Origin: Flavobacteriaceae bacterium CG_4_10_14_3_um_filter_33_47
Lineage (GTDB): Bacteria > Bacteroidota > Bacteroidia > Flavobacteriales > Flavobacteriaceae
Assembly (NCBI GenBank): GCA_002784145.1
Contig: PFKE01000065.1
Coordinates: 2,935-66,934 of the forward strand
Reading direction: 5' to 3'
Length of the DNA: 64,000 nucleotides
The notes under the pieces are model-generated. The model saw nothing but the letters and a program-made list of their open reading frames with translations. It made no database searches and was not told where the DNA came from. Positions 9,816-60,002 of the stretch are shown here, piece by piece. Positions within the stretch are counted from its first letter, which is position 1. Each line of letters starts with the position of its first letter. The position numbers were made by a program, and so were the translations under genes.

Positions 9816-9886
9816 TTAGCTGTTAGCTAAGTCTTTAGCATGAATATAATTCAGCTAAAAGCCAAAATCAAACAGCCAAAAGCTAT
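9816..9886. repeat. intergenic degenerate heptamer repeat element (GCYAAAA type), two inverted arms
   Basis: Left arm ttagctg-ttagcta-agtcttt-agc; right arm agctaaa-agccaaa-atcaaac-agccaaa-agctatg. Confidence 0.7.
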
Positions 9887-13578: not shown

Positions 13579-14913
13579 TTAGTTTCTTATTAATGAATTG
13601 GGAAAAACAACGGGGCTTTCAAAACCATTTTTACCAACAGATGCAATTCCAAAGAAAAAATTATCAATAACAATTCCATTTAGAGTAAACTCTAAAACAT
13701 CACCAACAAACCGACTATAATCCCAAGTTGGCGAGGTGGTGTCTCGCCAATAAATTTTATATCCAATGGCTCCATCTACTTGATTCCATTTAAATTTAGC
13801 TGAAGCTTCTACAATACCTCCAATAGCTACATTTTTTGGTGATGGTGGTGCCCATGCTAAACTAGCTAAATTTAAGGCATTCACAGCGGTTAGTTTTTTT
13901 GCATAATCAAAATTAACGTGTTCTATAACATCGCCATACTTGATACCATTTTCTTCTCTAATATCTTGATGTTGTTGCGTGTAGTTTTCGTGAGCTTCCA
14001 TAATACGAATGCCCGCAAAACCTAAATCGTTAAAAGGGCGATGGTGGCCACCACGGCCAAATCTATCTAATCTATAAACCATCATTGGGTTCATTTCTGG
14101 CATATAAGTTTTTACAGTTTTGTGAACATAACGAGCTAACTGACGAGAAATTCCATCGACTTCACCGCCATAAAAACGTCTCATTAGTCGTTCGTGTTCT
14201 GTTTCTGTAGGAGGAACAGGTTCAGAAAAAATCCTAAAGGTTCTGTTATCTATAATACCATCTACACCTTTAATGTTTCCTATCATATCATTGTTAAGAA
14301 TACCAATAATTTCCCAGTTCTTATCTTGTGCGTATTTAGCCAAACCAGCACCTCCAAATAAACCTTGTTCTTCTCCTGAGAGACCAACATAGATTATACT
14401 GTTTTCAAAACTGTATTTTGATAAGACTCTTGCTGCTTCCATAGTTCCAGCCATACCAGATGCATTGTCGTTAGCGCCCGGTGCTGCGGTTATAAAATCC
14501 ATGGTATCGCTAGCACGAGAATCTATATCGCCACTCATAATAATGTAACGATTGGGGTATTTTGTACCTTTTTGAACAGCTACCACGTTAACTATCCAAG
14601 CATCATGCGGTACACGACGATTTCTTTCTTTGGTGACAAAATCTTTTTGATAAAAAACATTTAAACAGTTATTACAATTTTTAGAGATAGTTTCAAACTC
14701 AGATTTTATCCAACGTCTTGCAGCTCCAATACCATTTGTGTTTGAAATGGTGTCACTAAACGTATTTCTGGTTCCAAAATCTGCAAGCGTTTGAATGTCT
14801 TTTGCAATTCTTTCTGATGAAACGCTATCAATGATTTGATAGAGATTAAGGTTTGTTTGTGAGATTATAAACTGAGTTGAGAGACCTAGGGTAAAAGCTA
14901 TTATTTTTTTCAT
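13579..14913 (-). CDS. secreted M28 family metallopeptidase
   Basis: GDIDSR, PGANDNASG, GEEQGL, LNNDMIG. Start set at ATG 14913 (MKKIIAF) because the upstream extension overlaps a terminator. Confidence 0.88.
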   Translation of the reverse strand: MKKIIAFTLGLSTQFIISQTNLNLYQIIDSVSSERIAKDIQTLADFGTRNTFSDTISNTNGIGAARRWIKSEFETISKNCNNCLNVFYQKDFVTKERNRRVPHDAWIVNVVAVQKGTKYPNRYIIMSGDIDSRASDTMDFITAAPGANDNASGMAGTMEAARVLSKYSFENSIIYVGLSGEEQGLFGGAGLAKYAQDKNWEIIGILNNDMIGNIKGVDGIIDNRTFRIFSEPVPPTETEHERLMRRFYGGEVDGISRQLARYVHKTVKTYMPEMNPMMVYRLDRFGRGGHHRPFNDLGFAGIRIMEAHENYTQQHQDIREENGIKYGDVIEHVNFDYAKKLTAVNALNLASLAWAPPSPKNVAIGGIVEASAKFKWNQVDGAIGYKIYWRDTTSPTWDYSRFVGDVLEFTLNGIVIDNFFFGIASVGKNGFESPVVFPNSLIRN

Positions 14914-43929: not shown

Positions 43930-44958
43930 CTATTTAATCAATACACTTTTGTATTTTATTAAATTTTTAAGGGTTATGCCCGTGCCTCTTACTACGGCAC
44001 GTAAAGGATCTTCAGCTATGTAAACTGGCAAATCTGTTTTTTGAGATAAACGTTTATCTAAGCCACGTAACATAGAGCCGCCACCAGCTAAATAAATACC
44101 TGTATTATAAATATCGGCAGCTAGTTCTGGAGGTGTTTGAGATAAGGTTTCCATCACAGCATCTTCAATACGTAAAATGGATTTATCTAGAGCTTTAGCT
44201 ATTTCTCTGTATGAGATTTGAACTTGTTTTGGTTTACCTGTTAGTAAATCACGACCTTGAACACTCATATCGTCTGGAGGAAGTTCCAAATCTTCGGTAG
44301 CTGCACCAATCTGAATTTTTATTTTTTCAGCAGTACGTTCACCTACATATAAATTGTGCTGCGTTCTCATGTAATAAACAATATCATTGGTGAAAACATC
44401 ACCTGCAATCTTTACAGATTTATCGCAAACAATACCACCCAAAGCAATCACCGCAATTTCTGTAGTACCGCCACCTATATCAACAATCATATTACCTTTA
44501 GGTTGCATGATATCTATTCCAATTCCAATGGCAGCAGCCATGGGTTCATGAATTAAATAAACTTCTTTACCATTTACACGTTCTGCACTTTCTTTAACAG
44601 CACGCATTTCAACTTCTGTAATTCCTGAAGGGATACAAATAACCATTCTTAAAGCAGGTGTAAAAAATCTCTTTTTTAGTGCAGGTATGTTTTTAATAAA
44701 CATACTAATCATTTGTTCAGAAGCATCAAAATCTGCAATAACACCATCTTTTAAAGGTCTTATGGTTTTGATGTTTTCATGAGTTTTTCCTTGCATTAAA
44801 CTAGCTTCTTGACCAACATGCGTTATTTTACCGGTTATTCTGTCTCGCGCTACAATGGAAGGCGCATCAACCACTACTTTGTCATTATGTATAATAAGGG
44901 TATTTGCAGTACCTAAATCTATTGCAATTTCTTCAGTTAGGAAGTCAAAAAAGCCCAT
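43930..44958 (-). CDS. mreB: actin-like MreB
   Basis: DLGTANT, PLKDGVIADF, DIGGGTTE, GGGSML. Confidence 0.97.
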   Translation of the reverse strand: MGFFDFLTEEIAIDLGTANTLIIHNDKVVVDAPSIVARDRITGKITHVGQEASLMQGKTHENIKTIRPLKDGVIADFDASEQMISMFIKNIPALKKRFFTPALRMVICIPSGITEVEMRAVKESAERVNGKEVYLIHEPMAAAIGIGIDIMQPKGNMIVDIGGGTTEIAVIALGGIVCDKSVKIAGDVFTNDIVYYMRTQHNLYVGERTAEKIKIQIGAATEDLELPPDDMSVQGRDLLTGKPKQVQISYREIAKALDKSILRIEDAVMETLSQTPPELAADIYNTGIYLAGGGSMLRGLDKRLSQKTDLPVYIAEDPLRAVVRGTGITLKNLIKYKSVLIK

Positions 44959-45046
44959 GTGCTGTATGTGTTGTTAAAGGTTTGTAAACTTATCTTGTAA
45001 ATGTAATAAAAGTTAAGGTAAATAAAATAATTAGATATTTATTTAA

Positions 45047-46579
45047 TTAATGTTTGAAATGTCTTGTTCCTGTTAATACCATAGAAACATTGTTTTCATT
45101 GCAAAAATCAATACTCAATTGGTCTTTAATGGATCCTCCTGGTTGAATTACGCTGGAAATACCAGCATTTTTAGCAATTTCCACACAATCTGGAAAAGGA
45201 AAAAAGGCATCACTTGCCATAACAGAACCTTTTAAATCAAAATGAAAACTTTGTGCTTTATGAATGGCTTGGTTTAAGGCGTCAACCCGACTTGTCTGAC
45301 CTGTTCCGCTTGCTAATAGTTGTTTGTTTTTTGCTAATACGATGGTGTTAGATTTGGTGTGCTTACAAATTTTTGAAGCAAAGATTAAATCTTCTAACTC
45401 GTTTTTGTTTGGTTTATTGTTAGTTGCATAGGTTAAATGTTCAATGGCATCGGTTATGTTATCCCGGCCTTGAACCAATACACCATTTAAACAACTTCTT
45501 ACGCTTGTTTTTGGCATGTCAATATCGTGAATAACTAAAATAATTCTGTTTTTTTTGCCTTGTAAAATAGTTAAGGCGTCTGCGGAATAAGAAGGAGCAA
45601 TAATGACTTCGCAAAATAAATTGTGTATGTCTTCGGCTGAAGTTTTATCTATTTCTGTATTGCTAATTAAAACACCACCAAAAGCAGAAACTGGATCACC
45701 TGCTAAGGCATCTAAATACGCTTGTTTTATACTGGCTCTTTGTGCTAAACCGCAGGCGTTGTTGTGTTTTAAAATAGCAAAGGTAGGTGCATCATTTTTA
45801 AACTCATTCATTAAGTTTACGGCAGAGTCTACATCTAGTAAATTATTATAGCTAAGTTCTTTACCATGAAGTTTTGTAAAAAGCGCATCAAAATTACCAA
45901 AGAAAAACCCTTTTTGATGTGGGTTTTCACCATATCGTAAAACCTGACCATTGGTTTCGCTAATTTTTAATACGGCTTCTTCATGATTTTTGTTGAAATA
46001 ATTAAAAATGGCCGAATCATAATGCGACGAAACATTAAAGGCTTTGGTAGCAAAACGTTTTCTATCACTTTCTGAAAGGTTCCCGTTTTTCTCTGTAATT
46101 AAATCAAGAAATTCAGCATAGTCATCTACCGAAGCAACACAAACCACATCCGCATAATTTTTTGCGGCTGCCCGAATTAACGAAATACCTCCAATATCAA
46201 TTTTCTCAATAATATCTTGTTCACTGGCTCCCGAAGCGACCGTTTTTTCAAACGGGTATAAATCAACAATAACCACATCTATTTGAGGGATATCAAATTC
46301 AGCTAATTCAGCAATGTCACTCATATTATTTTGACGGTTTAAAATACCACCAAACACTTTTGGATGTAATGTTTTAACACGTCCGCCAAGAATAGAAGGG
46401 TATGAGGTTATTTCTTCAACAGGAATTACATGAATGCCTAAGTTGTTAATAAATTGTTGTGTACCACCGGTTGAATAAATGGTTACTCCTTGCTCGTTTA
46501 ATTTCTTTACAATGGGTTCTAATCCATCCTTACTAAAGACTGATATTAATGCGGACTTAATTGTTTTTTGGTTACTCAT
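45047..46579 (-). CDS. purH: bifunctional AICAR transformylase / IMP cyclohydrolase
   Basis: GGRVKTLHP, IDIGG, LRYGENPHQ, SDAFFPF, IQPGGS, RHFKH. Confidence 0.97.
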   Translation of the reverse strand: MSNQKTIKSALISVFSKDGLEPIVKKLNEQGVTIYSTGGTQQFINNLGIHVIPVEEITSYPSILGGRVKTLHPKVFGGILNRQNNMSDIAELAEFDIPQIDVVIVDLYPFEKTVASGASEQDIIEKIDIGGISLIRAAAKNYADVVCVASVDDYAEFLDLITEKNGNLSESDRKRFATKAFNVSSHYDSAIFNYFNKNHEEAVLKISETNGQVLRYGENPHQKGFFFGNFDALFTKLHGKELSYNNLLDVDSAVNLMNEFKNDAPTFAILKHNNACGLAQRASIKQAYLDALAGDPVSAFGGVLISNTEIDKTSAEDIHNLFCEVIIAPSYSADALTILQGKKNRIILVIHDIDMPKTSVRSCLNGVLVQGRDNITDAIEHLTYATNNKPNKNELEDLIFASKICKHTKSNTIVLAKNKQLLASGTGQTSRVDALNQAIHKAQSFHFDLKGSVMASDAFFPFPDCVEIAKNAGISSVIQPGGSIKDQLSIDFCNENNVSMVLTGTRHFKH

Positions 46580-46667
46580 TTTGTTGGTTTGTTTCTTTTT
46601 TTATAATTGAAAAGCAATTTTTAGATGAATTTTTTCTTAAATCTTGTTATGTAGCATCTTAAAAGTG

Positions 46668-46675
46668 CAAAAGTA
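46668..46675 (-). promoter_or_regulatory. -7 promoter element of purH
   Basis: TACTTTTG(CA) on the minus strand. Confidence 0.65.
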
Positions 46676-46791
46676 ATTATTTCAAGTAAAATTACAGACT
46701 AGAAAAGGGTTTAGTTTTTATTTTTTGTAACGAATATTTTAATTAAACGTCATATCTTTATCTCTTAATGATCATTTAGAATTTTAAGCGT

Positions 46792-48042
46792 ATGATGCTT
46801 TATTTACGTCTTTTTAAAGAAAGTTTTTTCTTTGCAATTAATGCCTTGAGAAACAACAAACTGCGTACGTTTTTATCATTAATAGGAGTTACAGTTGGTA
46901 TTTTTTCAATCATTGCAGTATTAGCGGCCGTAGATTCTTTAGATCAAAGTATTAAAAGTCAACTTTCTGGTATCGACAAAAACACCATGTATGTTACTCG
47001 TTTTTCCTTTGGTCCCACAGAGATTCCCCGATGGCAACGCGAGAATTTCCCACAAACAGGCTACGATGATTTTGAATTTATAAAACGAAATGTTTCAGGA
47101 GTAGAAGCCTGTGCTTTTGCGCTTTTTGGAAGTGCCCAAAGTATTCGATATCAGGATAGAACGCTTGAAAACATCAATACCACACCTGTTTCAAACGAAA
47201 TTTATGAAATAGATAATTTAAAACTTTTTAAAGGCCGATTTTATAACGAAACCGAATCAAATATTGGTGCTTCTGTGATTGTTTTAGGATATAATTTGGC
47301 TGAAAATCTTTTTGAAAATGAAGAACCAATTGGAAAAATAGTTCGAGTTTATGGGAGAAAATTAACCGTTATTGGTGTGCTTGGTAAATATGGTGGTCTT
47401 AATATGGATTCTCCTGATGATAAAGCTTTTGTACCGGCCAATTTTGTTCGTCAGTTTATGAATACTGGAAATAATGGAATTATGACCATGATTATTATTA
47501 AACCTGAAAAAGGCATTGATATCGGCGCTTTTGAAGAAGTTTTAAGACAAAAATATAGAAGGTACAGAGGCTTAAAACCTGATGAAATCGATAATTTTTT
47601 TATCAATAAACTCTCCGGATTTACAGATTTAATAGACGGTATTATTTCAACTATGAATATGATTGGTTGGGTTATTAGTGGATTTTCTTTATTGGTTGGT
47701 GGTTTTGGAGTTGCCAATATTATGTTTGTGAGTGTAAAAGAACGAACCAATTTAATTGGAATTCAAAAAGCTATGGGAGCCAAGAATCGCTTTATATTAT
47801 TTCAGTTTTTATTTGAAGCTGTTATTTTAGCCGTTATTGGTGGGCTTATTGGGTTGTTTTTGGTATGGATTGGCACCTTAATAGGGTCTTCATTAGCTGG
47901 AGATTTTGAGTTTGTACTGTCATTTAAAAATATGGTACTAGGCTTTACAGTATCAAGCATTATAGGGTTAATAGCGGGTATTTTACCTGCGAATTCTGCG
48001 GCAAAGTTAGACCCTGTTGAGGCCATCAGAACCGGTATGTAG
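46792..48042 (+). CDS. MacB/FtsX-family ABC transporter permease
   Basis: N-terminal TM, periplasmic domain, GVANIMFVSVKERT..IGI.KAMGA, LDPVEAIR. Confidence 0.92.
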   Translation: MMLYLRLFKESFFFAINALRNNKLRTFLSLIGVTVGIFSIIAVLAAVDSLDQSIKSQLSGIDKNTMYVTRFSFGPTEIPRWQRENFPQTGYDDFEFIKRNVSGVEACAFALFGSAQSIRYQDRTLENINTTPVSNEIYEIDNLKLFKGRFYNETESNIGASVIVLGYNLAENLFENEEPIGKIVRVYGRKLTVIGVLGKYGGLNMDSPDDKAFVPANFVRQFMNTGNNGIMTMIIIKPEKGIDIGAFEEVLRQKYRRYRGLKPDEIDNFFINKLSGFTDLIDGIISTMNMIGWVISGFSLLVGGFGVANIMFVSVKERTNLIGIQKAMGAKNRFILFQFLFEAVILAVIGGLIGLFLVWIGTLIGSSLAGDFEFVLSFKNMVLGFTVSSIIGLIAGILPANSAAKLDPVEAIRTGM

Positions 48043-48043
48043 G

Positions 48044-48499
48044 TTAAAGAATCGTTGCTACCTTTGCACAAACAAACTCTAAAAAACGTTCATCAGCTTC
48101 CGTAAAAGGGTCTGGTGTATTTGAATCTATATCTATCTGCCCTATATTCTTACCATTTACAAAAATGGGTATCACAATTTCAGCTTTCACAGTTATGCTG
48201 CAAGCTATGTAATTGTCTTGTGCTGCAACATCAGGAACCACAAAGTTTTTATTGCTTACAGCTACTTGTCCACAAATACCTTTTCCAAATGGAATAACGG
48301 TATGATTTGTTGGAGCACCAACATATGGTCCTAAAATTAATTCTTCTTTAAGGCCATTTCTAAAATAAAAACCAACCCAATTATAGTACGATATGTTTTT
48401 TTCAAGCACTTCACAGATGTTTAACAATCGTTGCTCTATAGGTTTTTCTTGTTTAGAAACAATCGCTTCTATTTGTGGTTTTAAAGTTTCAAAAATCAT
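48044..48499 (-). CDS. GAF domain protein, free Met-R-sulfoxide reductase (MsrC/YebR)-like
   Basis: YNWVGFY, GICGQ, NYIACS, EIVIP, DIDS. Confidence 0.85.
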   Translation of the reverse strand: MIFETLKPQIEAIVSKQEKPIEQRLLNICEVLEKNISYYNWVGFYFRNGLKEELILGPYVGAPTNHTVIPFGKGICGQVAVSNKNFVVPDVAAQDNYIACSITVKAEIVIPIFVNGKNIGQIDIDSNTPDPFTEADERFLEFVCAKVATIL

Positions 48500-48584
48500 C
48501 TATTAAAAGTTTTGGTAAAAGTATTTAAAAAGACGTAACTTCGATATTCAAATTTATTTAAATTTAAAATCGTTTTAGGTTTTT

Positions 48585-49136
48585 TTGAAGGCACTCGTTA
48601 TTAAATACAAATCGGTTATCAAATTTATATTAACATTTATGGTGGTATATATGTTAATGTCTTTATGCTATAAATGGTATTTAGATATTTCAAAAAATGG
48701 CGATTATTTTCCTGATTATATTACCAATTTAGTAGCTAGACAAAGCAAAGATTTAATTGATGTTACCGGCTATAATGCTCAAGTTTTACCGCATTCAGAA
48801 GAACCTTCCATGAAATTAATTATAAATGATAAATACTTGGCCAGAGTGATTGAAGGTTGCAATTCTGTAAGTGTTATTATTTTATTTGTTTCGTTTATTG
48901 TGGCTTTTTCTGGTAGTTTAAAAACAACGTTGATGTATATACTCTCTGGAAGCGTTTTAATTTATACGGTTAATTTATTACGAATCGTTATTTTATCTAT
49001 TGGCTTGTATCATTATCCTTGGCGAAGAGATATATTACATACGGTGATTTTTCCAGGAATTATTTATGGAATGGTCTTTTTATTATGGATTTTTTGGGTA
49101 AACAGATTTTCTAACATGATAAAAAAAAATGAATAA
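48585..49136 (+). CDS. xrtF: exosortase family protein XrtF
   Basis: IIEGCNSVS catalytic Cys, NLLRI Arg, conserved His; followed by its partner gene. TTG start. Confidence 0.88.
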   Translation: MKALVIKYKSVIKFILTFMVVYMLMSLCYKWYLDISKNGDYFPDYITNLVARQSKDLIDVTGYNAQVLPHSEEPSMKLIINDKYLARVIEGCNSVSVIILFVSFIVAFSGSLKTTLMYILSGSVLIYTVNLLRIVILSIGLYHYPWRRDILHTVIFPGIIYGMVFLLWIFWVNRFSNMIKKNE

Positions 49137-49557
49137 TAGTCTTAAATATACCTTATTAATACTGTTGTTTGGAATGTTAGTGTTAATCCGTGTTTTTGAG
49201 AACCAACTATTTTACGACCCATATTTATTGTTTTTTCAAAATGACTATCTATATATTGACAATCCCAGGCGAGAAGTTTTTAAATTAATGACCTTTACAA
49301 GTTTAAGATATGGGTTAAATGCCATCATCTCATTAGCCATCTTGTATGTGGTTTTTAAAGATGTAAGTATGATTAAGTTTTCAACACTTATATACCTGTT
49401 TTCATTTATATTGCTTAGTTTAATGTATCTATATTTTGTTGTAAACCCTAAGCAAGAGCAGTATTATTTGTTTTTTAACATCAGACGGTTTTTAATTCAA
49501 CCCATCCTTTTATTAGTCTTGTTACCAGCTTTTTATTATTACAAACTGAAGCATTAA
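49129..49557 (+). CDS. exosortase F system-associated membrane protein
   Basis: IRVFENQLFYDP and RRFLIQP motifs; overlaps xrtF. Confidence 0.85.
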   Translation: MNNSLKYTLLILLFGMLVLIRVFENQLFYDPYLLFFQNDYLYIDNPRREVFKLMTFTSLRYGLNAIISLAILYVVFKDVSMIKFSTLIYLFSFILLSLMYLYFVVNPKQEQYYLFFNIRRFLIQPILLLVLLPAFYYYKLKH

Positions 49558-49568
49558 ATGTTAAGGTC

Positions 49569-49582
49569 ATGATAAACATCAG
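49569..49582. promoter_or_regulatory. Fnr/Crp-type box upstream of the metal efflux cluster
   Basis: ATGATAAACATCAG, 22 nt upstream of a perfect TATTTTTG (49605-49612). Confidence 0.65.
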
Positions 49583-49618
49583 CTTGTATTGGTTATATTT
49601 TTCGTATTTTTGGTTTCT

Positions 49619-50035
49619 ATGAAAGTTTTATCACAAAAAATAATGTCTTTTTTTATGGCTTTGGTAGTCTTGTTTTCTACCACGTCATTTACCATTGATA
49701 AGCATTATTGTGGGAAAATATTAGTTGATACCGCTGTTTTTAATAAGGCCAAAGGTTGTGGCATGGAGATGCAAGTCTCAACAATCAATTCAGAATGTTC
49801 AACCGTTAAAAAAAGCTGTTGTACAGAAGAACAGATTACTGTACAAGGACAAGACGAGTTGCAACTGAACTTAGATAAACTTACTTTAGAAAAGCAACTT
49901 TTTGTTGCTTCATTTTTATATTCTTATGCATCACTTTTTGAAAGTGCTGAAAAACCAACCCATTCATTTTTAGAATATCCACCACCACTTATTGTCAAGA
50001 GTATCTACAAACTTGACGAGACTTATTTAATTTGA
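49619..50035 (+). CDS. HYC_CC_PP family small protein (candidate regulatory leader)
   Basis: Hydrophobic N-terminus, HYC, CGME, SCC, C-terminal YPPPL. ATG 49619 is preferred over the track start at 49589. Confidence 0.85.
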   Translation: MKVLSQKIMSFFMALVVLFSTTSFTIDKHYCGKILVDTAVFNKAKGCGMEMQVSTINSECSTVKKSCCTEEQITVQGQDELQLNLDKLTLEKQLFVASFLYSYASLFESAEKPTHSFLEYPPPLIVKSIYKLDETYLI

Positions 50036-50053
50036 TTTTTAAAGCATTAGGCT

Positions 50054-50135
50054 AAGTTATCCAACAACAATTTATTGTTATTAGGATAATTTGTTGTATT
50101 CGGTGTTATCCTTAAACCAATGTCTAACGGTTTAA
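50054..50135 (+). promoter_or_regulatory. structured leader between HYC_CC_PP and cusA
   Basis: Hairpin 50054-50092 (aagttatccaacaacaa / ttgttattaggataattt); second ttatcc at 50106-50111; ttaaacc / ggtttaa inverted repeat at 50112-50135. Confidence 0.55.
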
Positions 50136-50147
50136 TAATCATTTTAT

Positions 50148-53100
50148 ATGTTAAATAAAATCATAAAATATTTTTTAGAGAATAAGTTAATTACAACGCT
50201 TGTTTTAATCACATTTATTGCTTGGGGTATGTCTACATCACCATTCAATTGGAATACTGGTTTTTTGCCAAAAGATCCTGTGCCTGTTGATGCCATTCCA
50301 GATTTAGGTGAAAACCAACAAATCGTATTTACAGAGTGGTCTGGAAGATCTCCTCAGGATATTGAAGATCAGATCACCTATCCGCTCACAACATCACTTT
50401 TAGGAATACCAAATGTAAAGTCAATTAGAAGCTCCTCCATGTTTGGCTTTTCTAGTATTTACATCATTTTTGAAGAAAAAGTTGATTTCTACTGGTCTCG
50501 ATCTAGGGTTTTAGAAAAGTTAAATTCCTTGCCTAATAATTTATTGCCAGATGAAGTGAAACCTAGATTAGGACCAGATGCAACCGCTTTAGGTCAAGTA
50601 TATTGGTATACTATTGAAGGTCGAGATGAAAAAGGGAATGTTACTGGAGGCTGGGACTTGGATGAATTACGTTCTGTACAGGATTACTATGTAAAATACG
50701 CTTTAAATGGTGTTTCAGGTGTTTCAGAAGTGGCGTCTGTTGGTGGTTATGTGAAAGAGTATCAAATTGATGTGAATCCAGATGCCCTAAAAGCCTATAA
50801 TATTGGCATTGATGTGGTCATGATGGCGGTTAAAAACTCTAATCGAGATATAGGTGCTAAAACCATCGAAATCAATAAAGCGGAATATTTTATTCGCGGA
50901 CTTGGGTATATAAAAACGACCCAAGATTTAGAAAATACGGTAGTAAGTGTTACCAATAACAAACCGATTCTCATTAAGGATGTTGCCCATGTAAGTTTGG
51001 GACCAGCAACCCGAAGAGGGGTTTTGGATAAAGGTGGCGCAGAGGTTGTTGGAGGTGTAGTTGTGGCTCGGTATGGTTCAAATCCTTTAGAAGTTATCAA
51101 TAATGTGAAGGCTAAAATAAAAGAGTTTTCATCGGGATTACCTAAAAAAACCTTGGTTGATGGAACAACAAGTCAACTCACCATTGTTCCTTTTTATGAC
51201 CGTACCAAGCTCATTGAGGAAACCATTAGCACTTTGGAAACGGCTTTGTCACATGAGATACTCATCAGTATTATTGTAGTCCTTGTTCTGATGATGAATT
51301 TAAGAGCTTCATTTATAATTTCCAGTTTATTGCCTGTTGGAGTACTCATGACGTTCATTATTATGCGCTATGCGGGCGTTGATGCCAATGTCGTGGCATT
51401 GTCTGGTATTGCCATTGCCATTGGCGTTATGGTGGATATTGGGATTGTATTTGTCGAAAATATCATTCGGCATTTAGAAATGCCCGAAAACCATGGTGTA
51501 AAGGGTAAAGAATTAATGCATGTTATTTATGTGGCGACCAAGGAAGTCGCATCGGCCATTACAACGGCTTTGGCAACAACAGTCGTAAGTTTTATTCCTG
51601 TTTTCGCCATGGTAGGAGCCGAGGGAAAATTATTCAGACCACTTGCGTTTACAAAAACATTTGCCTTATTGGGAGCTTTCGTTTTAGGCATTGTTGTATT
51701 GCCAGCTTTAGCACATTTTGTTTTCGGTATCAATTACGATAAAAGGAAGGTTAAAAGAACTTGGGGTATTATATTAATTGTTGGTGGATTACTATTGGCA
51801 ATTTATATGCACATTTGGCTACCATTGGTATTATGTGTTTTAGGTTTCAATTCACTGTTTGAACATAAACTGCCACTTAAATTCAACAAGTATTCCAAGT
51901 ACATTAATATAGGGTTGACCTTATTTATTGCTACATTTTTCTTGACTGAAGAATGGATGCCATTAGGATCACAAAATTACCTCATTGTAAATTATGTATT
52001 TGTACTGGTATTAATTGGGGTCATTTTAGGAATGCTGTTAACCATTGTCCATTTTTATGAACCCGTTTTAAAATGGTGTTTGAATAATAAAGGCAAGTTC
52101 ACGTTGATTCCGCTTTTCACCTTGTTGTTTGGCGTTTTCATTTGGCTGGGGTTTGATAGTATTTTCGGATTTGCTTCCAAAGGGTTTGAAAAAATGGGAT
52201 GGAATATTAAGGAAACAAAGGTCTGGTCCTCAATTTCCAAAACATTTCCAGGTATTGGATCCGAGTTTATGCCAACCCTAAATGAAGGATCATTTCTGTT
52301 AATGCCTTCCGCCATGCCTCATGCGGGATTGGAAGAAAGCAAAAACACGGTCCAGAAATTGGATATGCTGTTGGCGAATTTTCCAGAGGTTGACATTGCT
52401 GTTGGTAAGTTGGGAAGGGTGGAAAGTGCCATTGATCCTGCGCCTATTTCCATGTTTGAAAACATTATCAATTACAAACCGGAATTTATAGAAACCTATA
52501 ATGGAAAACCTATTCGTTTTAAAGTAAATAAAGAGGATAAGTTCATTCTTAAAAACGGAAAAGAGTTAACAAACGATGAAGCATTACTTCAAAGTATCAC
52601 TGAAAAAGATCTAGTTCCTGATGATAATGGTGAATTTTTTAGAAACTGGCGTCCCCACATAAAAAGCTCTGATGATATTTGGAAAGAAATAGTCAAGGTT
52701 TCAAAACTACCTGGAGTAACTTCAGCACCAAAACTGCAACCTATTGAAACACGATTGGTCATGCTGCAAACTGGTATGCGCGCGCCCATGGGAATTAAGG
52801 TGTATGGTCCCGATTTAAAAACCATTCAAGATTTTGGTTTGGAGTTGGAAGGGATATTAAAACAAGTTCCTTCCGTTAAAGCCGAAGCTGTTTTTGCCGA
52901 TAGAATTGTAGGGAAACCCTATTTACAAATAAATATTAACCGTTCTGCCACTGCCCGTTACGGTTTAAGTGTAGAAAAGGTTCAGCAAGTTATAGAAACT
53001 GCTGTAGGCGGCATGAAAACCACAACTACGGTTGAAGGCAGGGAGCGTTATCCTGTTAGGGTAAGATATCCTAGAGAATTACGTGACGATCCAGAGAAAA

Positions 53101-53960
53101 TCAAAAAAATATTGGTGCCAACTCCAACAGGTGTTCAGGTGCCTTTGGGCGAACTGGTTGATCTTGAATTTGTTCGTGGCCCTCAAATGATAAAGAGCGA
53201 AGAAACCTTTTTGGTGGGTTATGTTCTGTTCGATAAAAAAGAAAACTTCGCTGAAGTTGATGTGGTCAACGATGCCCAAAAGTTGATTGAAGATAAGATT
53301 GATGCAGGAGAATTGTTAGTTCCAAAAGGCGTGAGCTATAAATTTTCTGGTAGTTATGAAAATCAAATTCGTGCCGTTAAAAAATTATCAATTGTTATCC
53401 CAATAAGTTTATTGGTGATATTCCTGCTATTGTACTTTCAGTTTAAAACGGTCATTGCGTCATCCATCCATTTTTCAGGTGTATTTGTGGCTTTTGCTGG
53501 TGGATTTATTATGTTATGGCTGTATGGTCAGGATTGGTTTTTGAATTTCTCCATAGCCGATGTGAATATGCGGCATTTATTTCAGATTCATCCCATCAAT
53601 TTAAGCGTTGCCGTTTGGGTCGGGTTTATCGCCTTGTTCGGAATAGCAACGGATGATGGCGTTATTATGGGGACTTACATCCATCAAGTTTTTGAAGAGC
53701 GACAACCTGAAACAATAGTAGGCGTGAGAGAAGCCGTTTTAGTTGCTGGTAAAAAACGGGTGAGACCCGCAATGATGACCGCAGCAGTGGCCATCATCGC
53801 TTTACTTCCCGTGCTGACCTCAACAGGTAAAGGCGCAGATATTATGATACCCATGGCCATACCTGTATTTGGAGGGATGATTATTCAGCTTATGACCATG
53901 TTTGTCGTGCCCGTTTTACAGGCTTTTTGGAGAGAATCAGTAATTAAACGCAATCCATAA
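50148..53960 (+). CDS. cusA: CusA/CzcA-family heavy-metal RND efflux permease
   Basis: VPVDAIPDLGENQQIV, GPDATALGQ, GIAIAIGVMVD, RVRPAMMT. Confidence 0.93.
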   Translation: MLNKIIKYFLENKLITTLVLITFIAWGMSTSPFNWNTGFLPKDPVPVDAIPDLGENQQIVFTEWSGRSPQDIEDQITYPLTTSLLGIPNVKSIRSSSMFGFSSIYIIFEEKVDFYWSRSRVLEKLNSLPNNLLPDEVKPRLGPDATALGQVYWYTIEGRDEKGNVTGGWDLDELRSVQDYYVKYALNGVSGVSEVASVGGYVKEYQIDVNPDALKAYNIGIDVVMMAVKNSNRDIGAKTIEINKAEYFIRGLGYIKTTQDLENTVVSVTNNKPILIKDVAHVSLGPATRRGVLDKGGAEVVGGVVVARYGSNPLEVINNVKAKIKEFSSGLPKKTLVDGTTSQLTIVPFYDRTKLIEETISTLETALSHEILISIIVVLVLMMNLRASFIISSLLPVGVLMTFIIMRYAGVDANVVALSGIAIAIGVMVDIGIVFVENIIRHLEMPENHGVKGKELMHVIYVATKEVASAITTALATTVVSFIPVFAMVGAEGKLFRPLAFTKTFALLGAFVLGIVVLPALAHFVFGINYDKRKVKRTWGIILIVGGLLLAIYMHIWLPLVLCVLGFNSLFEHKLPLKFNKYSKYINIGLTLFIATFFLTEEWMPLGSQNYLIVNYVFVLVLIGVILGMLLTIVHFYEPVLKWCLNNKGKFTLIPLFTLLFGVFIWLGFDSIFGFASKGFEKMGWNIKETKVWSSISKTFPGIGSEFMPTLNEGSFLLMPSAMPHAGLEESKNTVQKLDMLLANFPEVDIAVGKLGRVESAIDPAPISMFENIINYKPEFIETYNGKPIRFKVNKEDKFILKNGKELTNDEALLQSITEKDLVPDDNGEFFRNWRPHIKSSDDIWKEIVKVSKLPGVTSAPKLQPIETRLVMLQTGMRAPMGIKVYGPDLKTIQDFGLELEGILKQVPSVKAEAVFADRIVGKPYLQININRSATARYGLSVEKVQQVIETAVGGMKTTTTVEGRERYPVRVRYPRELRDDPEKIKKILVPTPTGVQVPLGELVDLEFVRGPQMIKSEETFLVGYVLFDKKENFAEVDVVNDAQKLIEDKIDAGELLVPKGVSYKFSGSYENQIRAVKKLSIVIPISLLVIFLLLYFQFKTVIASSIHFSGVFVAFAGGFIMLWLYGQDWFLNFSIADVNMRHLFQIHPINLSVAVWVGFIALFGIATDDGVIMGTYIHQVFEERQPETIVGVREAVLVAGKKRVRPAMMTAAVAIIALLPVLTSTGKGADIMIPMAIPVFGGMIIQLMTMFVVPVLQAFWRESVIKRNP

Positions 53961-55216
53961 TGAAGACTATAAAAAAACATAAGATATTGAACATAAGTTA
54001 TTTAATTCTTGTAGTAATGTTATATTCCACAAGCATGAATAGTCAAGTATTACCTGAATATTTAACGATGGCATCTCAAAATAACCCTGAGATACAAGCC
54101 GCTTACAAAGAATTTGAAGCTGCTTTACAAAAAGCACCACAAGTAAGTTCGTTACCAGACCCAAGTTTGACCATGAGTGCTTTTGGACGAATGATTGAAA
54201 CTAGGGTAGGAGCCCAAGAAGCCCGATTTAGTCTGATGCAAATGTTTCCTTGGTTTGGAACTCTTGAAGCAAAAGAGCAAGCTGCTAATTTGATGGCTGA
54301 AGCTACTTTTCAAAAGTATTTGGATTCTAGAAATGAAGTTTTTTTAAAAATTAAAAAAACGTATGCTGAACTCTATGAAATCAATACAATAATTCAGCTT
54401 GAAGAGGAAAATCTTAAAATCTTGAATAACTATAGAGAACTGGCCTTGAGTAAATTCAAAAGTGGTAAAGGAGCCATGGTTGACGTGGTGAGGATCGATA
54501 TAAAAAGAAACGAAAGCGAAACCAAAATTCAATTATTGAAAGATCAAAACCAACCACTACAAATTGAATTTAATAGTTTGTTGAATAGGGATTTGAATGA
54601 AATGGTTACTATTCCGGATTCCTTAGCACTGGTTGAAAATGATGTGCCCTTAGAAAGAGATAGTTTATTTGTTTTCAACCCTAAATTAAAGGGATTGGAA
54701 AAAAAGATAGCATCTTTTGAAGCACAAAAAAAAGTGGTCAAAAAAGAAGGGTATCCCATGATAGGACTTGGTTTGGATTATTCCATCATTTCAAAACGTG
54801 ATGTCCCTGATTTGGAAATGAACGGACAAGATGCCATTATGCCCATGCTTTCGGTGACACTGCCCATTTTCAGAAAAAAATACCATGCAAAACAAAAAGA
54901 AGTCGACTTCATGTTACAGGCAACTCATTATGAAAAACAAGCGGTAAAAAACAATTTGCAAACGTCGTATAGTATGGCCAATTATAATATTTCGAAAGCT
55001 AAAACTTTAAAAGAATTGTATAAAAAGCAAACTGAAAGTACAAAACAAGCTATTTCGTTATTAATAGCGGCTTATAGCAATTCAGGAACTGATTTTGAGG
55101 AAATTTTAAGGATGAACCAAGATTTGTTAGTGCTTCAAACCGTAATGGTTTCAGCAAATAAAAATCAATTTATTGCACAATCAACACGAGATTATTTAAT
55201 TTCTAAACAGGAATAA
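53960..55216 (+). CDS. TolC-family outer membrane efflux protein
   Basis: Signal peptide, NPEIQA, SLPDP, QMFPWFG, LPIFRKKY; translationally coupled to cusA. Confidence 0.92.
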   Translation: MKTIKKHKILNISYLILVVMLYSTSMNSQVLPEYLTMASQNNPEIQAAYKEFEAALQKAPQVSSLPDPSLTMSAFGRMIETRVGAQEARFSLMQMFPWFGTLEAKEQAANLMAEATFQKYLDSRNEVFLKIKKTYAELYEINTIIQLEEENLKILNNYRELALSKFKSGKGAMVDVVRIDIKRNESETKIQLLKDQNQPLQIEFNSLLNRDLNEMVTIPDSLALVENDVPLERDSLFVFNPKLKGLEKKIASFEAQKKVVKKEGYPMIGLGLDYSIISKRDVPDLEMNGQDAIMPMLSVTLPIFRKKYHAKQKEVDFMLQATHYEKQAVKNNLQTSYSMANYNISKAKTLKELYKKQTESTKQAISLLIAAYSNSGTDFEEILRMNQDLLVLQTVMVSANKNQFIAQSTRDYLISKQE

Positions 55217-55217
55217 G

Positions 55218-57008
55218 ATGAACACAAAAAATAAAAATATATTAAAAAAGGTAGGTATCCTATTTGTTGGGGTTCTACTAGGATGGTTGGTTTTTGGAGG
55301 AAGTGATGCTCCAAAATCAGAACATGATCATACAAGTGTCGAAGGCACGGAAACCATTTGGACCTGTTCCATGCATCCGCAAATACAGATGAAAGAATCT
55401 GGTCAATGCCCATTATGTGGTATGGATTTAATTCCTTTGGAATCGAATGATTCTGCCATAGATCCCAATGCACTTCAGATGACCGAGGATGCCATGAAAT
55501 TGGCCAATATTCAAACGATGGTCGTAGGAGGTAGTAAGGAAACCAACAAAAAGTTGGCTTTGAATGGTAAAGTGCAAATTGATGAGCGTAAACTATACAC
55601 ACAATCATCTCATATTCCGGGTAGAATTGAAAAGTTGAATATTAATTTTACTGGTGAAAAAGTAAGTCGTGGGCAAACATTGGCGATGGTCTATTCTCCT
55701 GAATTGGTGACAGCCCAAGAAGAATTGCTGCAAGCGTATCGCATCAAAGAGACGCAACCAGAATTATTTGAAGCTGCTAAACAAAAACTAAATAATTGGA
55801 AAATAGGCGCGGGCACAATAAATAAAATAATAAGTAGCAATAAGCCCATTCAGCAATTTCCAATTACTGCAGATGTTTCAGGTATTATCACTGCTAAAAA
55901 AGTTGATTTAGGTGATTATGTTGGCCAAGGCATGCCCATCTATGAGATAGCTGATTTATCATCACTATGGGTGCTTTTTGATGTGTATGAAAGCGATATG
56001 CCTTGGGTAAAAGTAGGTAACAAAATAAACTATACCATCCAATCGTTGCCAGGAGAATCCTTTGAAGGAGTTGTTACCTTTATAGATCCTCTGATAAACC
56101 CACAAACGCGGGTCGCATCGGCACGAGTTGAGGTGAAAAATCCTGAAAATAAACTAAAACCTGAAATGTTTGCTTCCGGTGTTGTAAATAATAACGTTAG
56201 TACTTCAACGTCTAAAGACATCGTGATTCCAAAATCGGCAGTGATGTGGACTGGTGAACGTTCGGTTGTTTACATCAAAAGCATCGTTTCCAATAAGGTA
56301 AACTTCAAATTAAGAGAAGTCACATTGGGTGCATCCGTTGGAGATGCTTATATCATAAAAGAAGGGCTTTCAGAAGGAGAAGACATTGTAGTTAATGGCA
56401 CTTTTACGGTCGATGCAGCTTCACAATTAGCAGGTAAACCAAGTATGATGAGTCTAGAAGGAGGGAAAATAGTAACCGGGCATAATCATGGCGACGAAAC
56501 TAAACCGACTTCAAATAAAATTGAATTTACTCAAAATATCACTGTTAAACAGGTTGTAATAAGTCAAGAAGCCAAAGAGGCTCTTAGGCTTGTATTTAAT
56601 AACTATTTGGCAATGAAAGACGCGCTTGTTAACGACAATTTTGAAATTGCAAAAAAAGCTGGAATTCATCTACTTAAATCTGTTGAAAGCATAGATATGT
56701 CCCTTTTTACTGGTAAATCGCATAACACTTGGACGCACTTAAGTGGCAATTTAAAAAAGGAACTTCAAAATATTCAGCATTTTAAAACATTAAGCGATAT
56801 TAGAAAGCCTTTTAATCAAATATCAAATGACTTGATTAAGATGGAATTATCCTTTAATTCGATGGATGAAACATTATATGTTTTCCATTGCCCTATGGCA
56901 AACCTTAATAAAGGAGCCGATTGGTTAAGTGTTTCTACTGATGTAAAAAATCCATATTACGGAAAAGCAATGCTTACTTGTGGTGAAGTTTCAAAAGAAA
57001 TAAAATAA
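55218..57008 (+). CDS. cusB: CusB-like RND periplasmic adaptor with metal-binding and DUF3347-like domains
   Basis: WTCSMHPQI...CPLCGMDL, YSPELVTAQEE, LKPEMF, C-terminal HCPMA...NPYYG..MLTCG. Confidence 0.88.
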   Translation: MNTKNKNILKKVGILFVGVLLGWLVFGGSDAPKSEHDHTSVEGTETIWTCSMHPQIQMKESGQCPLCGMDLIPLESNDSAIDPNALQMTEDAMKLANIQTMVVGGSKETNKKLALNGKVQIDERKLYTQSSHIPGRIEKLNINFTGEKVSRGQTLAMVYSPELVTAQEELLQAYRIKETQPELFEAAKQKLNNWKIGAGTINKIISSNKPIQQFPITADVSGIITAKKVDLGDYVGQGMPIYEIADLSSLWVLFDVYESDMPWVKVGNKINYTIQSLPGESFEGVVTFIDPLINPQTRVASARVEVKNPENKLKPEMFASGVVNNNVSTSTSKDIVIPKSAVMWTGERSVVYIKSIVSNKVNFKLREVTLGASVGDAYIIKEGLSEGEDIVVNGTFTVDAASQLAGKPSMMSLEGGKIVTGHNHGDETKPTSNKIEFTQNITVKQVVISQEAKEALRLVFNNYLAMKDALVNDNFEIAKKAGIHLLKSVESIDMSLFTGKSHNTWTHLSGNLKKELQNIQHFKTLSDIRKPFNQISNDLIKMELSFNSMDETLYVFHCPMANLNKGADWLSVSTDVKNPYYGKAMLTCGEVSKEIK

Positions 57009-57048
57009 CAAAAAAACAATAATTAATAACCCATAAAACAATTAAAAA

Positions 57049-57453
57049 ATGAAAAATTTAAAAGTAATAACCGTAATTTTAACAATGTTTTTCATTGGTT
57101 TATTTGCAATATCTTGCAAAGATAATGCTAAAAAAGAAAACAAATCTATAACGACTAAAACCGTTCAAAATGTAACGTCCATTAGTTTTGGAGTACGCGG
57201 TAATTGCGGTATGTGCAAAAACACTATTGAAAAAGCAACGAACACCGTTGACGGCGTCACTAAAGCAGTTTGGGATGTTGATAAAAAGAAATTGGATGTA
57301 TCCTTTGATAGCACAAAAACAAATGAAATGGCTATCCATCAGGCTATTGCTGCTTCAGGGTACGATACAGAAAAAGTAGCTGCTAATATCCAAGCTTATA
57401 GCGGTTTGCCAGATTGTTGCCAATACGACCATGAAATGGTGATGAATCTATAA
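57049..57453 (+). CDS. lipoprotein with heavy-metal-associated (HMA) domain
   Basis: Lipobox ISC; GNCGMC; GYDT; LPDCCQY. Confidence 0.87.
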   Translation: MKNLKVITVILTMFFIGLFAISCKDNAKKENKSITTKTVQNVTSISFGVRGNCGMCKNTIEKATNTVDGVTKAVWDVDKKKLDVSFDSTKTNEMAIHQAIAASGYDTEKVAANIQAYSGLPDCCQYDHEMVMNL

Positions 57454-57481
57454 GTTAATACAATAAATTAAAAATAAGGGC

Positions 57482-59878
57482 ATGAAACATACTTATCATA
57501 TTCACGGAATGAGTTGTAATGGTTGTCGCAGCCATGTTGAAAAAACCCTTTTAAAAGTAAATGGTGTTTCAAATGCTTTTGTAGATTTAGAAAAAGCTGA
57601 AGCGACTTTAGAAATGACATCGCATATTCCAATTGAAACATTTCAAGAAGCTTTTAAAAGTGATGGAGGACGCTATAGTATTTTTAACCATGGAGAACAT
57701 CACCACACAGACAAAAAAGAAGAAAAACCAAAAGGCAAAGGCACTGGAACTTTTTATTGCCCCATGCATTGCGAAGGTGAAAAAACCTATGATAAACCAG
57801 GAGATTGCCCTGTGTGCGGCATGGATTTAGTTGAAGAGGTTTCGTCTAATACAGAGATTTCATCTGAAGATAAGGGTTATAAAAAGTTACTTAGTAAGTT
57901 TTGGATAAGCCTTGCATGTACCTTGCCAATTTTTATAATAGCCATGTCTGAAATGATTCCTAATAATCCATTATATGAAATAATGCCTATAAAATATTGG
58001 AACTGGATTCAATTTGGCTTATCCATTCCAGTAGTATTTTATGCCACATGGATGTTTTTTGAACGTGCCTATCGTTCTATAAAAACATGGCGGTTAAATA
58101 TGTTTACCTTAATAGGAATTGGCGCCGGTGTTGCGTGGCTTTTTAGTGTTTTTGGCATGTTGTTTCCAGATTTTTTTCCATCGCAATTTAAAACTGAACA
58201 GCAAACGGTTCATTTATATTTTGAAGCAGCCACTGTTATTTTAACCTTGGTCTTAATGGGACAAGTCTTAGAAGCTCGTGCACACAGTAAAACCAATAGT
58301 GCTGTTAAAGAATTGTTACGATTAGCTCCAAATCAAGCTGTTAGAATAGTTGACGGAAAAGAAGAAATTACCGCTATTGAAAATATAGTAGTAGGTGATT
58401 TATTACGTGTAAAACCAGGCGATAAAATTCCGGTTGATGGTTCTGTTTATGAAGGAGAAAGTTCTGTTGATGAATCTATGATTACTGGTGAGCCTATGCC
58501 TGTACATAAATCTGTTCATGATCAAGTAAGTTCTGGAACCATCAATGGCAATCAATCGTTTGTTATGAAAGCCGAAAAAGTTGGCAATGATACCTTGCTG
58601 TCTCAAATTATTGATATGGTAAATAAAGCGAGTAGGAGTCAAGCACCTATTCAGAAATTAGCGGATAAAATCTCAGGATATTTTGTGCCTATTGTGGTGT
58701 TTATTTCAGTCATTACGTTTATTATTTGGGTAATATTTGGTCCAGAACCTAAGTATGTATTTGCATTGGTAAATGCTATTGCAGTTCTTATTATTGCCTG
58801 TCCATGTGCCTTAGGGTTGGCAACACCTATGTCAGTTATGGTAGGTGTTGGCAAGGGCGCAAAATCGGGCGTTTTAATTAAGAATGCAGAAGCATTAGAA
58901 CGCTTAAATAGTATAGACGTTTTAATAATTGATAAAACAGGTACTATTACCGAAGGAAAACCATCGGTTGATAAAATTGGCGTTCAATTGTCAAAATATA
59001 CTGAAAAAGAGGTGCTTCAATATATGGTTTCTTTGAATCAAATGAGTGAACATCCTTTGGCAGAAGCCACTATGAAATACGGCAAAGAACAGAACGTTGA
59101 ACCTTTAAAAGTAACTGGTTTTAATTCTATCACCGGTAAAGGTGTTGTCGGTACTATTAATGGTAAGAAAACAGCTTTGGGTAATGGAAAGTTAATGCAA
59201 GAAATGACTGCCATCATCCCTGATGAACTAATAAATGATGTTAAAGTACAGCAAACATTAGGAAAAACAGTCTCCTTTTTATCTGTTGATTCTATGGTAA
59301 TTGGTTATATGGTGATTCAAGATAAGATAAAAGCATCCAGTAAAAAGGCTATTGCAGAATTACAATCAAAAGGCATAGAAGTTATCATGCTTACTGGCGA
59401 TAACATTAATACAGCCAAAGCTGTTGCAGAACTATTAAATCTTACAAATTTTAAAGCAGGTCTATTACCTCAGGAAAAATTAAGTGAAGTGGAAAATCTT
59501 CAAAAACTGGGCAAAAAAGTTGCGGTTGCAGGTGATGGTATCAATGATTCACCAGCTTTGGCAAAAAGCAATGTTGGCATTGCTATGGGAACCGGAACTG
59601 ATGTGGCTATTGAAAGTGCTGGAATAACCTTGGTAAAAGGTGATTTGCAAGGTATTGTTAAGGCGCATAATTTGAGTCAGGAAGTGATGCGTAACATAAA
59701 ACAAAACTTGTTTTTTGCGCTCGTTTACAATAGTGTTGGTGTTCCTATTGCTGCGGGTGTTTTATTTCCGTTTTTTGGAATCTTATTATCACCTATGATT
59801 GCTGCTTTGGCTATGAGTTTTAGTTCTGTTTCTGTGATTGCCAATGCCTTACGGTTGCGTCATTTAAATCTTGATTAA
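57482..59878 (+). CDS. copA: Cu(I)-exporting P1B ATPase
   Basis: GMSCNGC HMA, YCPMH...[26 protein letters not shown] and MSFSS TM motifs. Confidence 0.94.
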
Positions 59879-60002
59879 TGCACAGATTTTTTATGTTAAA
59901 CAAGCCTAAAAAAAGCATCAAAATGAAAATAAAATATTAAATTGAAACGTTTTTTATAAACATGTTAATAAATTAGAATTCATTTAATAAAAACCCAATC
60001 AT

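Follow-up and report, generated by a model that had tools for sequence, protein, structure and literature searches.

A long-range RNA helix between the stop codon of a HYC_CC_PP leader gene and the start of cusA suggests cis-acting translational coupling in Flavobacteriaceae

Here we report a comparative analysis of a small leader gene of the HYC_CC_PP family, and of the spacer that separates it from a cusA-type copper pump gene, in Flavobacteriaceae bacterium CG_4_10_14_3_um_filter_33_47 (GenBank assembly GCA_002784145.1). The DNA analysed is a 64,000-nt stretch of contig PFKE01000065.1 (forward strand, positions 2,935 to 66,934), referred to here as the window. The stop codon of the leader gene and the nucleotides that follow it can pair with the nucleotides preceding the cusA start codon in a long-range helix (P0), and the comparative evidence makes it somewhat probable (about 0.55) that translation of cusA is coupled in cis, through P0, to completion of the leader open reading frame (ORF). 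That this coupling is tuned by metal through the nascent chain is a more tentative suggestion. An earlier note made from the sequence alone (the original prediction) had proposed a cis-acting upstream ORF that gates a copper gene in the manner of CutF and CruR; the comparative evidence (the ORF comes first, is leaderless and is tied to cusA by P0) agrees with this outline, but not with the particular hairpins and the proline-dependent pause that had been proposed to operate it.

P0 comprises about 18 bp and encloses two hairpins, H1 and H2, across a spacer of about 110 nt (112 nt in the window, between the leader stop codon and the cusA ATG at 50148). Its 5' strand (50033-50052, forward strand, as for all features of the spacer) consists of the stop codon TGA followed by TTTTTAAAGC (P0a) and TAGGC (P0b), and its 3' strand (50122-50141), GTCTA ... 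GGTTTAATAATCA, ends 6 nt before the cusA ATG. The consensus strands in the cusA-linked subfamily (subfamily A) are TGATTTTTAAACA..TAGAC, beginning at the stop codon, and GTCTA..TGTTTAATAATCA, preceding the cusA start. H1 (50056-50090) has an outer stem, TTATCC...GGATAA, and a covarying inner stem, and is followed by a U-rich tract, TTTGTTGTATTC (50090-50101); H2 (50102-50118) is formed by GGTGTT...AAACC and is weakened in the window by one G-A mismatch. When the window spacer was folded together with the stop codon, exactly this architecture of P0, H1 and H2 was obtained at -27 kcal/mol (z = -3.2), and the fold without the stop codon was unremarkable (z = -1.66). A scan of positions 49400-50400 against Rfam 15 gave only a chance match, to a eukaryotic long non-coding RNA model (E = 4).

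Conservation was assessed in an alignment of 60 distinct related spacers (A2), in which the U-rich tract is also conserved. The H1 helix is 90.9% paired, with compensatory changes at nine of its ten pairs, and the H2 helix 92.8% paired, with compensatory changes at four of six. Taken together, 91.6% of the alignment cells of the two hairpins are paired, as against 29-51% with slid partners, and 13 of 16 pairs are compensatory, a result reached by none of 500 shuffles; RNAalifold recovers both hairpins as well. For P0, pairing within subfamily A amounts to 85.3% in P0a (35-51% when slid) and 89.6% in P0b (16-44% when slid). Thirteen held-out sequences, aligned by a covariance model built on A2 and thus in an alignment fitted to that model, showed 89% pairing and compensatory changes at 21 of 29 pairs (7 of 13 such pairs in P0). 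A strict covariance model was found in 7 of 301 genomes, which indicates that the exact sequence belongs to one clade and the architecture to the family.

The strongest covariation of P0 comes from comparisons between subfamilies. Minimum free energy (MFE) folds of divergent loci gave a stop-to-start helix built from different letters, for example UGAUUUAUUAGAU/AUCUAAUAAUCA in locus L114 and UGAUUUUAAUGUU/AACAUUAAAAUCA in Flavobacterium. At locus L103 the stop codon itself covaries, UAA facing UUA, and at a locus from another family of the order the 3' strand of the P0-type helix covers the AUG itself. The position of the helix is constrained as well: of 93 loci, 83 have the start of the 5' strand between -3 and +2 from the first base of the stop codon, and 87 have the end of the 3' strand 2-7 nt before the ATG. 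In a permutation test with one representative for each of 32 sequence classes, cognate P0 strands paired at -10.7 kcal/mol compared with -6.5 +/- 0.43 kcal/mol for permuted partners, and none of 10000 permutations reached the cognate value. The duplex between stop and start regions had a mean of -14.0 kcal/mol over 112 family loci, 86% of which lay at or below -10 kcal/mol; the corresponding values for 447 same-strand spacers of this genome were -5.1 kcal/mol and 4%, and the window's own duplex (-16.5 kcal/mol) ranked second of the 447. Stop/start complementarity as a general habit of an AT-rich genome was rejected on these grounds, the median duplex being -4.7 kcal/mol with 4% reaching -10 or lower. 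Judged from sequence comparison, P0-type pairing thus recurs throughout the family, before cusA as well as before TonB-dependent receptor, MbnP and HMA genes.

Strong stop/start complementarity was also noted in a few other spacers of the genome, on contigs C97 (minus strand, 19577-19629), C43 (minus strand, 8271-8443), C113 (plus strand, 13913-13966) and C31 (minus strand, 26366-26502). A spacer with heptamer repeats in the window (9816-9886) is among the top 25 of 512 in this respect.

The leader ORF (49619-50035, forward strand) starts with ATG at 49619, ends with TGA at 50033-50035 and has 138 codons. Its product matches the NCBIfam profile NF047658 (HYC_CC_PP) with 111.6 bits (cut-off 28) over profile positions 1-131 of 131, its homologues carry PF26622 in precomputed annotations, and the three name-giving motifs (H-Y-C, C-C and P-P) are all present. 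The ORF is a genuine and widely conserved member of the family. Re-reading of the sequence reproduced exactly the ORF, motifs, spacer and repeats of the original prediction, including the putative metal ligands, which lie at H29-Y-C31, C47-G-M49 and C67-C68; a further cysteine is C60, and a PPP occupies residues 121-123. Among 69 distinct sequences from Flavobacteriaceae (mean column identity 70%), the invariant positions are M1, H29, C31, G32, C47, G48, M49, C67, C68, P123 and the last residues; at least 90% of the sequences keep P122. The N-terminus is hydrophobic, and the export-like character attributed to it earlier agrees with a helix at residues 2-21, predicted by AlphaFold2 and by hydrophobicity; a second segment (93-107) is moderately hydrophobic. 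The AlphaFold2 model, made from the alignment of the 69 sequences, is weak (predicted local distance difference test, pLDDT, 59) and contains helix 2-21, strands 24-40 and 68-75, helix 90-107 and a disordered tail (114-138); a Foldseek search of the model against the PDB gave no match with an E-value below 2. Representative sequences of the family fall into 1245 clusters (50% identity, E<=0.001), nearly all of 125-140 amino acids, and of 301 genomes sampled in the order Flavobacteriales, 113 have matches to the family hidden Markov model, often in several copies. Literature searches on 'HYC_CC_PP' and 'PF26622' found no paper.

Upstream of the ORF lies a Bacteroidota-type -7 box, TATTTTTG (49605-49612, forward strand), recognised by its sequence and by its conservation in relatives, with its G 7 nt before the A of the leader ATG. 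This position places the predicted transcript start at or next to the ATG, so that the mRNA would be leaderless. A TAnnTTTG-like box is found in 64 of 69 distinct subfamily A loci, with the G mostly 7-10 nt before the ATG, and also in most loci of the Flavobacterium subfamily (subfamily B), mostly at 5-6 nt; the original prediction had correctly described the ORF as nearly leaderless, and to judge by these boxes the near-leaderless start is a conserved trait of the family. Because residues 1-12 are conserved at the protein level, M1 is the true start, and the start at M13 chosen by some gene callers was rejected. An operator-like near-palindrome, TCATGATAAACATCAG (49567-49582, forward strand), was read from the sequence upstream of the promoter and could be a transcription-factor site. 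The closest relatives carry TCATGATAATTATCA in its place, and more distant relatives have two TGTTAA repeats about 21 nt apart. Directly upstream (48585-49557) are the genes of an exosortase XrtF (TIGR04128, 233 bits) and a partner membrane protein (TIGR04127), a region nearly without RNA coverage, whereas the leader ORF is covered in all four metatranscriptomes described below.

Bacteroidota ribosomes work without Shine-Dalgarno (SD) pairing, and in F. johnsoniae the structure of the mRNA tunes initiation (PMC6847099). Since initiation that ignores SD sequences needs an unstructured start region, P0 would be expected to block cusA. In the proposed mechanism, P0, formed by the stop codon plus about 18 nt and the approximately 20 nt upstream of the cusA AUG, closes a junction that holds H1 and H2 and would prevent initiation on cusA. 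On arriving at the last codons or the stop codon, a ribosome that translates the leader would occupy the 5' strand of P0, presumably opening the helix at termination, and would free the cusA start region for as long as it dwells there. Such a ribosome, with the stop codon in the A site, was modelled by barring 27 nt (stop-12 to stop+15) from pairing. With this mask the start region (-18 to +10) was unpaired with a mean probability of 0.61 over 105 loci, as against 0.40 without it and 0.40 with an equal mask in the middle of the spacer. Readthrough of the TGA or a fusion with cusA was rejected, as the frame closes after five codons and cusA lies in another frame.

The codons of the C-terminal decapeptide of the leader protein, IYKLDETYLI, and of the stop (50003-50035, forward strand) encode a peptide that is identical in 64 distinct sequences despite codon drift (four codons for Thr, five for Leu), and the stop is TGA in all 64. 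The last two codons (TTA ATT) are nearly fixed in nucleotides, which fits their partial inclusion in P0. The proline triplet that the original prediction had placed at the C-terminus does exist (P121-P123, codons 49979-49987, forward strand), but the family keeps just the last two prolines, 15 codons before the stop: proline is found at position -16 in 64 of 64 sequences, at -17 in 59 and at -18 in 23. The number of residues after PP is 15 in subfamily A and 13 in subfamily B, and the tail of deeper relatives reads PP-x(5-7)-[IV]-x-[VK]-L-x-x-x-[FY]-[LI]-I or PPLFKLYHQYIFYA. Refolding of the spacer by a ribosome stalled at PPP, as had been suggested, fails because P0 is out of reach from there. 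The likeliest point at which a nascent chain could exert control would then be the dwell at the last codons or the stop. Two candidate sensors may be considered, namely the exported part of the nascent protein, rich in Cys, His and Met, and the invariant 17-residue tail (PP...IYKLDETYLI) that would fill the tunnel at termination; with these, the length of the dwell could come to depend on copper in the periplasm, as in CutF and CruR. At that moment helix 90-107 would be at the tunnel exit or the translocon and the Cys-rich domain already in the periplasm, where binding of copper could alter the pulling force on the chain and hence the dwell of the terminating ribosome, which would keep P0 open and license initiation on the next gene. 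The proteins of the HYC_CC_PP family may in this way form a new class of metal-sensing nascent-chain regulators that act at termination and not by a terminal proline stall, a possibility that we regard as rather doubtful on present evidence, and the same module would be reused before exporters (cusA) and importers (TonB-dependent receptors, MbnP).

The leader ORF is the first cistron of a cusA-cusC-cusB-HMA-copA operon, all on the forward strand. The pump gene (50148-53960) matches TIGR00914 with 776 bits (cut-off 701) and encodes a Cu(I)/Ag(I) pump of the resistance-nodulation-division (RND) type, whose best relative in the PDB is E. coli CusA (650 bits) compared with ZneA (380 bits). In an alignment read by eye, it keeps the residues corresponding to CusA M573, M623 and M672 (the methionine cluster) and E567, D617, E625 and R669 (the relay). 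With 1270 amino acids it is longer than E. coli CusA (1047), and the alignment splits into three blocks, with inserts of about 175 residues (525-701, with several hydrophobic segments) and about 50 residues (780-832). It is followed, according to profile matches, by genes for an outer-membrane factor (53960-55216), a CusB-like adaptor with HMBD and DUF3347 domains (55218-57008), an HMA protein (57049-57453) and a CopA-type P1B ATPase (57482-59878). No gene for a copper-responsive regulator (CusRS or another two-component system, CueR/MerR, CsoR or ArsR) was found adjacent to the cus/copA cluster in window positions 43930-62228. This absence counts in favour of control through the leader. The genes that flank the cluster encode MreB, PurH, a permease of the MacB/FtsX type, a GAF protein and a DPP-IV peptidase.

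At the family level, the leader is always the first gene, with its target gene next on the same strand. Of 80 Flavobacteriaceae loci, 78 have cusA in this place, most of them behind a spacer of 105-110 nt; cusA also follows in 16 of 20 distant loci. At other HYC_CC_PP loci the next gene encodes a TonB-dependent receptor (Plug and barrel; in Flavobacterium), an MbnP-type copper protein or an HMA-MauE fusion, so that the linked genes, for exporters and importers alike, are all of copper or heavy-metal types. At loci L089-L116 (Flavobacterium), L123 and L068/L073 there are paralogues whose tail differs (...DANAPPLFKLYHQYIFYA/S); most precede TonB-dependent receptors, one precedes an MbnP with a sorting domain of the type IX secretion system and two precede HMA-MauE genes, and most keep the stop-to-start helix.

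These neighbourhoods bear on the alternative that survives best beside translational coupling through P0, namely that HYC_CC_PP is a stable accessory protein that binds copper, either exported or anchored in the membrane (a chaperone or regulator like CusF, CzcI or PCuAC), and that the spacer sets stoichiometry or mRNA stability, with no sensing by a nascent chain. Conservation over the full length, including the N-terminal helix and helix 90-107, would suit such a protein, as would five invariant Cys together with His and Met, which are suited to Cu(I) binding, and small periplasmic proteins are established components of metal RND operons (CzcI in PMC9973294). The tails, moreover, differ between subfamilies in step with the downstream partner, as a contact surface might. 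A family that precedes both exporters and importers is, however, unexpected as a subunit of one machine and expected as a sensor, a leader or a general chaperone; the next genes (RND exporter, TonB-dependent importer, MbnP, HMA-MauE) are mechanistically unrelated. An accessory protein would also leave unexplained that the helix starts exactly at the stop codon, its gene is always first, leaderless and tied to the next gene by P0, and the AlphaFold2 model is poor and has no structural relative. We consider this alternative unlikely.

RNA contigs identical to this stretch were present in all four aquifer metatranscriptomes, which are low-depth assemblies (2-5x) without precise ends. They are missing from 49046 to 49643 and set in at 49644 and 49648, and two of them (49986-50253 and 50074-50293) extend into cusA from the ORF or the spacer; the leader ORF is transcribed, and it is co-transcribed with cusA. 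The leader region is covered more densely and evenly than the body of cusA, and in three of the four runs contigs end at 50096, 50103 or 50104, which is 7-15 nt past H1 and at the U-rich tract. H1 and this tract may, as a lead, constitute a leaky terminator or attenuator, or a processing site. Control could then be exerted mainly at the level of transcription, with H1 and the tract acting as a leaky terminator, or the untranslated spacer as a Rho entry site as for CruR, translation of the leader setting the read-through and P0 being secondary. The conservation of TTTGTTGTATTC is in keeping with this, as is an RNA contig of a Flavobacterium relative that ends about 57 nt past the stop, just beyond the first hairpin (from sparse, diverged data and our own reading of the fold), and CruR acts via Rho-dependent termination (PMC9426467). 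Contig ends in assemblies of such depth are nevertheless weak evidence, two contigs read through, and a scan for sigma-70 and terminator consensus sequences found nothing useful in the spacer. A ribosome at the leader stop covers the RNA to about 50048-50050 and falls short of H1, which begins at 50056; no conserved antiterminator was found, and the covariation of P0 would be left unexplained. Attenuation as the main mechanism is thus distinctly improbable.

The original prediction had assigned the control of cusA to other pairings of the spacer. GGATAA (50084-50089) was to toggle between two copies of TTATCC (50057-50062 and 50106-50111), and a stem of TTAAACC (50112-50118) and GGTTTAA (50129-50135, within the 3' strand of P0), which ends 12 nt before the cusA ATG, was to hide the start. 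All of these elements are present, and the pairing with the first TTATCC is the outer stem of H1. The pairing with the second copy shows no covariation, its central pair is unpaired in 54 of 60 relatives, and the second TTATCC itself is found in 2 of the 60, the consensus there being TTTTC-T; this helix was rejected. The TTAAACC/GGTTTAA stem, a perfect 7 bp in the window, is 55% paired over the 60 relatives, and each of three of its seven pairs fails to form in 49 or more of them; it is real in the window as a competitor of P0 and not a feature of the family. Covariation analysis, which the original prediction had named as its own check, thus favours a different structure (P0, H1 and H2), and both proposed pairings are peculiar to this window. 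A switch in which a ribosome paused at PPP drives the toggle and the start-hiding stem is very improbable, because, even though every element exists in the window and the perfect 7-bp stem can replace P0 in the masked fold, neither toggle nor stem is conserved in the 60 relatives and PPP lies 46 nt upstream of the stop, from where the spacer is out of reach.

Several points weigh against coupling through P0 and its tuning by metal. P0 of the window holds a G-G mismatch, and within subfamily A much of the helix is invariant on both strands, so that its covariation there is thin. In the window itself the mask opens the start region almost not at all (0.43 to 0.46), because the window-specific TTAAACC can re-capture the 3' strand of P0. 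P0 could not be opened by a ribosome paused on PP, which would have about 30 nt left to the stop, and the pause at termination is an assumption. The contig ends past H1 may point to attenuation as an additional or alternative control point, and conservation of the leader protein over its full length also fits a stable functional protein. Finally, and in agreement with the original prediction, no experiment on any member of the family is known.

If the proposed reading holds, an unrelated and very large family of Bacteroidota would run the logic of CutF and CruR with different hardware, in which the mRNA is leaderless, a stop-to-start helix replaces the SD-masking stem-loop and the prolines are followed by a conserved tail. 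The control of metal uptake and efflux operons in genomes without adjacent regulators of the cusRS type would thereby be explained, and structure-mediated translational coupling could be studied in a clean natural setting, in a phylum that ignores SD sequences. P0 makes the hypothesis directly testable by compensatory mutations. To our knowledge, copper sensing by an exported nascent peptide has been shown experimentally only for two proteobacterial proteins of the DUF2946 type.

Among known systems, CzcI and CusF resemble the leader protein as small exported and presumably metal-binding proteins of heavy-metal RND operons, but they have no sequence similarity to it and are not tied to importer operons. 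We know of no report of a leaderless start or a stop-to-start helix for either. The pairs SecM-secA, MifM-yidC2 and VemP-secDF (summarised in PMC9973294) share with it a secreted upstream ORF, a conserved C-terminal segment of about 17 residues and a ribosome at the end of the ORF that unfolds a helix masking the downstream start; they sense secretion or insertion and their arrest is demonstrated, whereas HYC_CC_PP has an unrelated motif, a hypothetical arrest and, presumably, a metal as its signal.

The closest functional parallels, besides the SecM class, are CruR and CutF. As with these, the leader protein has fewer than 150 residues (138), an N-terminal hydrophobic helix and invariant His and Cys, it is encoded first in a metal operon, and a predicted intergenic RNA structure lies over the downstream start within reach of the end of the ORF; the occurrence of the family before exporters and importers also matches the neighbourhood pattern of DUF2946 proteins (PMC9973294, PMC9426467). 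It departs from them in having no proline motif at the extreme C-terminus and in not being a DUF2946 protein. Membership of DUF2946 by sequence was ruled out, as PF11162 gave no match for the window protein at E<=0.01 or for any of 69 relatives at E<=10; this profile is absent from the window's genome and has weak matches in 5 of 201 genomes of the phylum. 'CutF-like' proteins have been listed in Bacteroidota upstream of ACR_tran (CusA-type) genes with a filter for PP within the last 15 residues (PMC9973294), which, in a comparison by filter only, subfamily B would pass and subfamily A just misses.

CruR (Bp2923 of Bordetella pertussis; PMC9426467) is likewise an upstream ORF that heads a copper operon and, like subfamily B, precedes a TonB-dependent receptor; its intergenic region is also long (162 nt compared with about 110 nt here), and in either case an RNA 3' end may lie within the spacer. 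It differs in belonging to DUF2946, in its arrest motif, a C-terminal RAPP, and in acting by Rho-dependent termination; HYC_CC_PP has no RAPP, and for it occlusion of the start region is what the evidence suggests first. CutF (Rhodobacter capsulatus, cutFOG; PMC9973294) is a small exported Cys-motif protein, first in a copper operon, with a C-terminal proline motif and an mRNA structure that hides the next start and should be opened by a ribosome at the end of the ORF. Its PPP lies two residues from the end (P109EPEGPPPRL118; bioRxiv 10.1101/2025.02.05.636593), whereas the PP of HYC_CC_PP lies 15 residues from the end and is followed by the invariant decapeptide. CutF, moreover, is DUF2946-like and uses a local stem-loop over a Shine-Dalgarno sequence; HYC_CC_PP has no detectable sequence relation to DUF2946 and would use a helix of about 18 bp from stop to start, with an SD-less start and a leaderless mRNA. 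What is new here is that the stop-to-start helix covaries, that the leaderless start is conserved and that the tail beyond the prolines is invariant. By analogy, a mechanism like that of CutF and CruR, with putative stalling and metal sensing, is plausible in this unrelated family of Bacteroidota.

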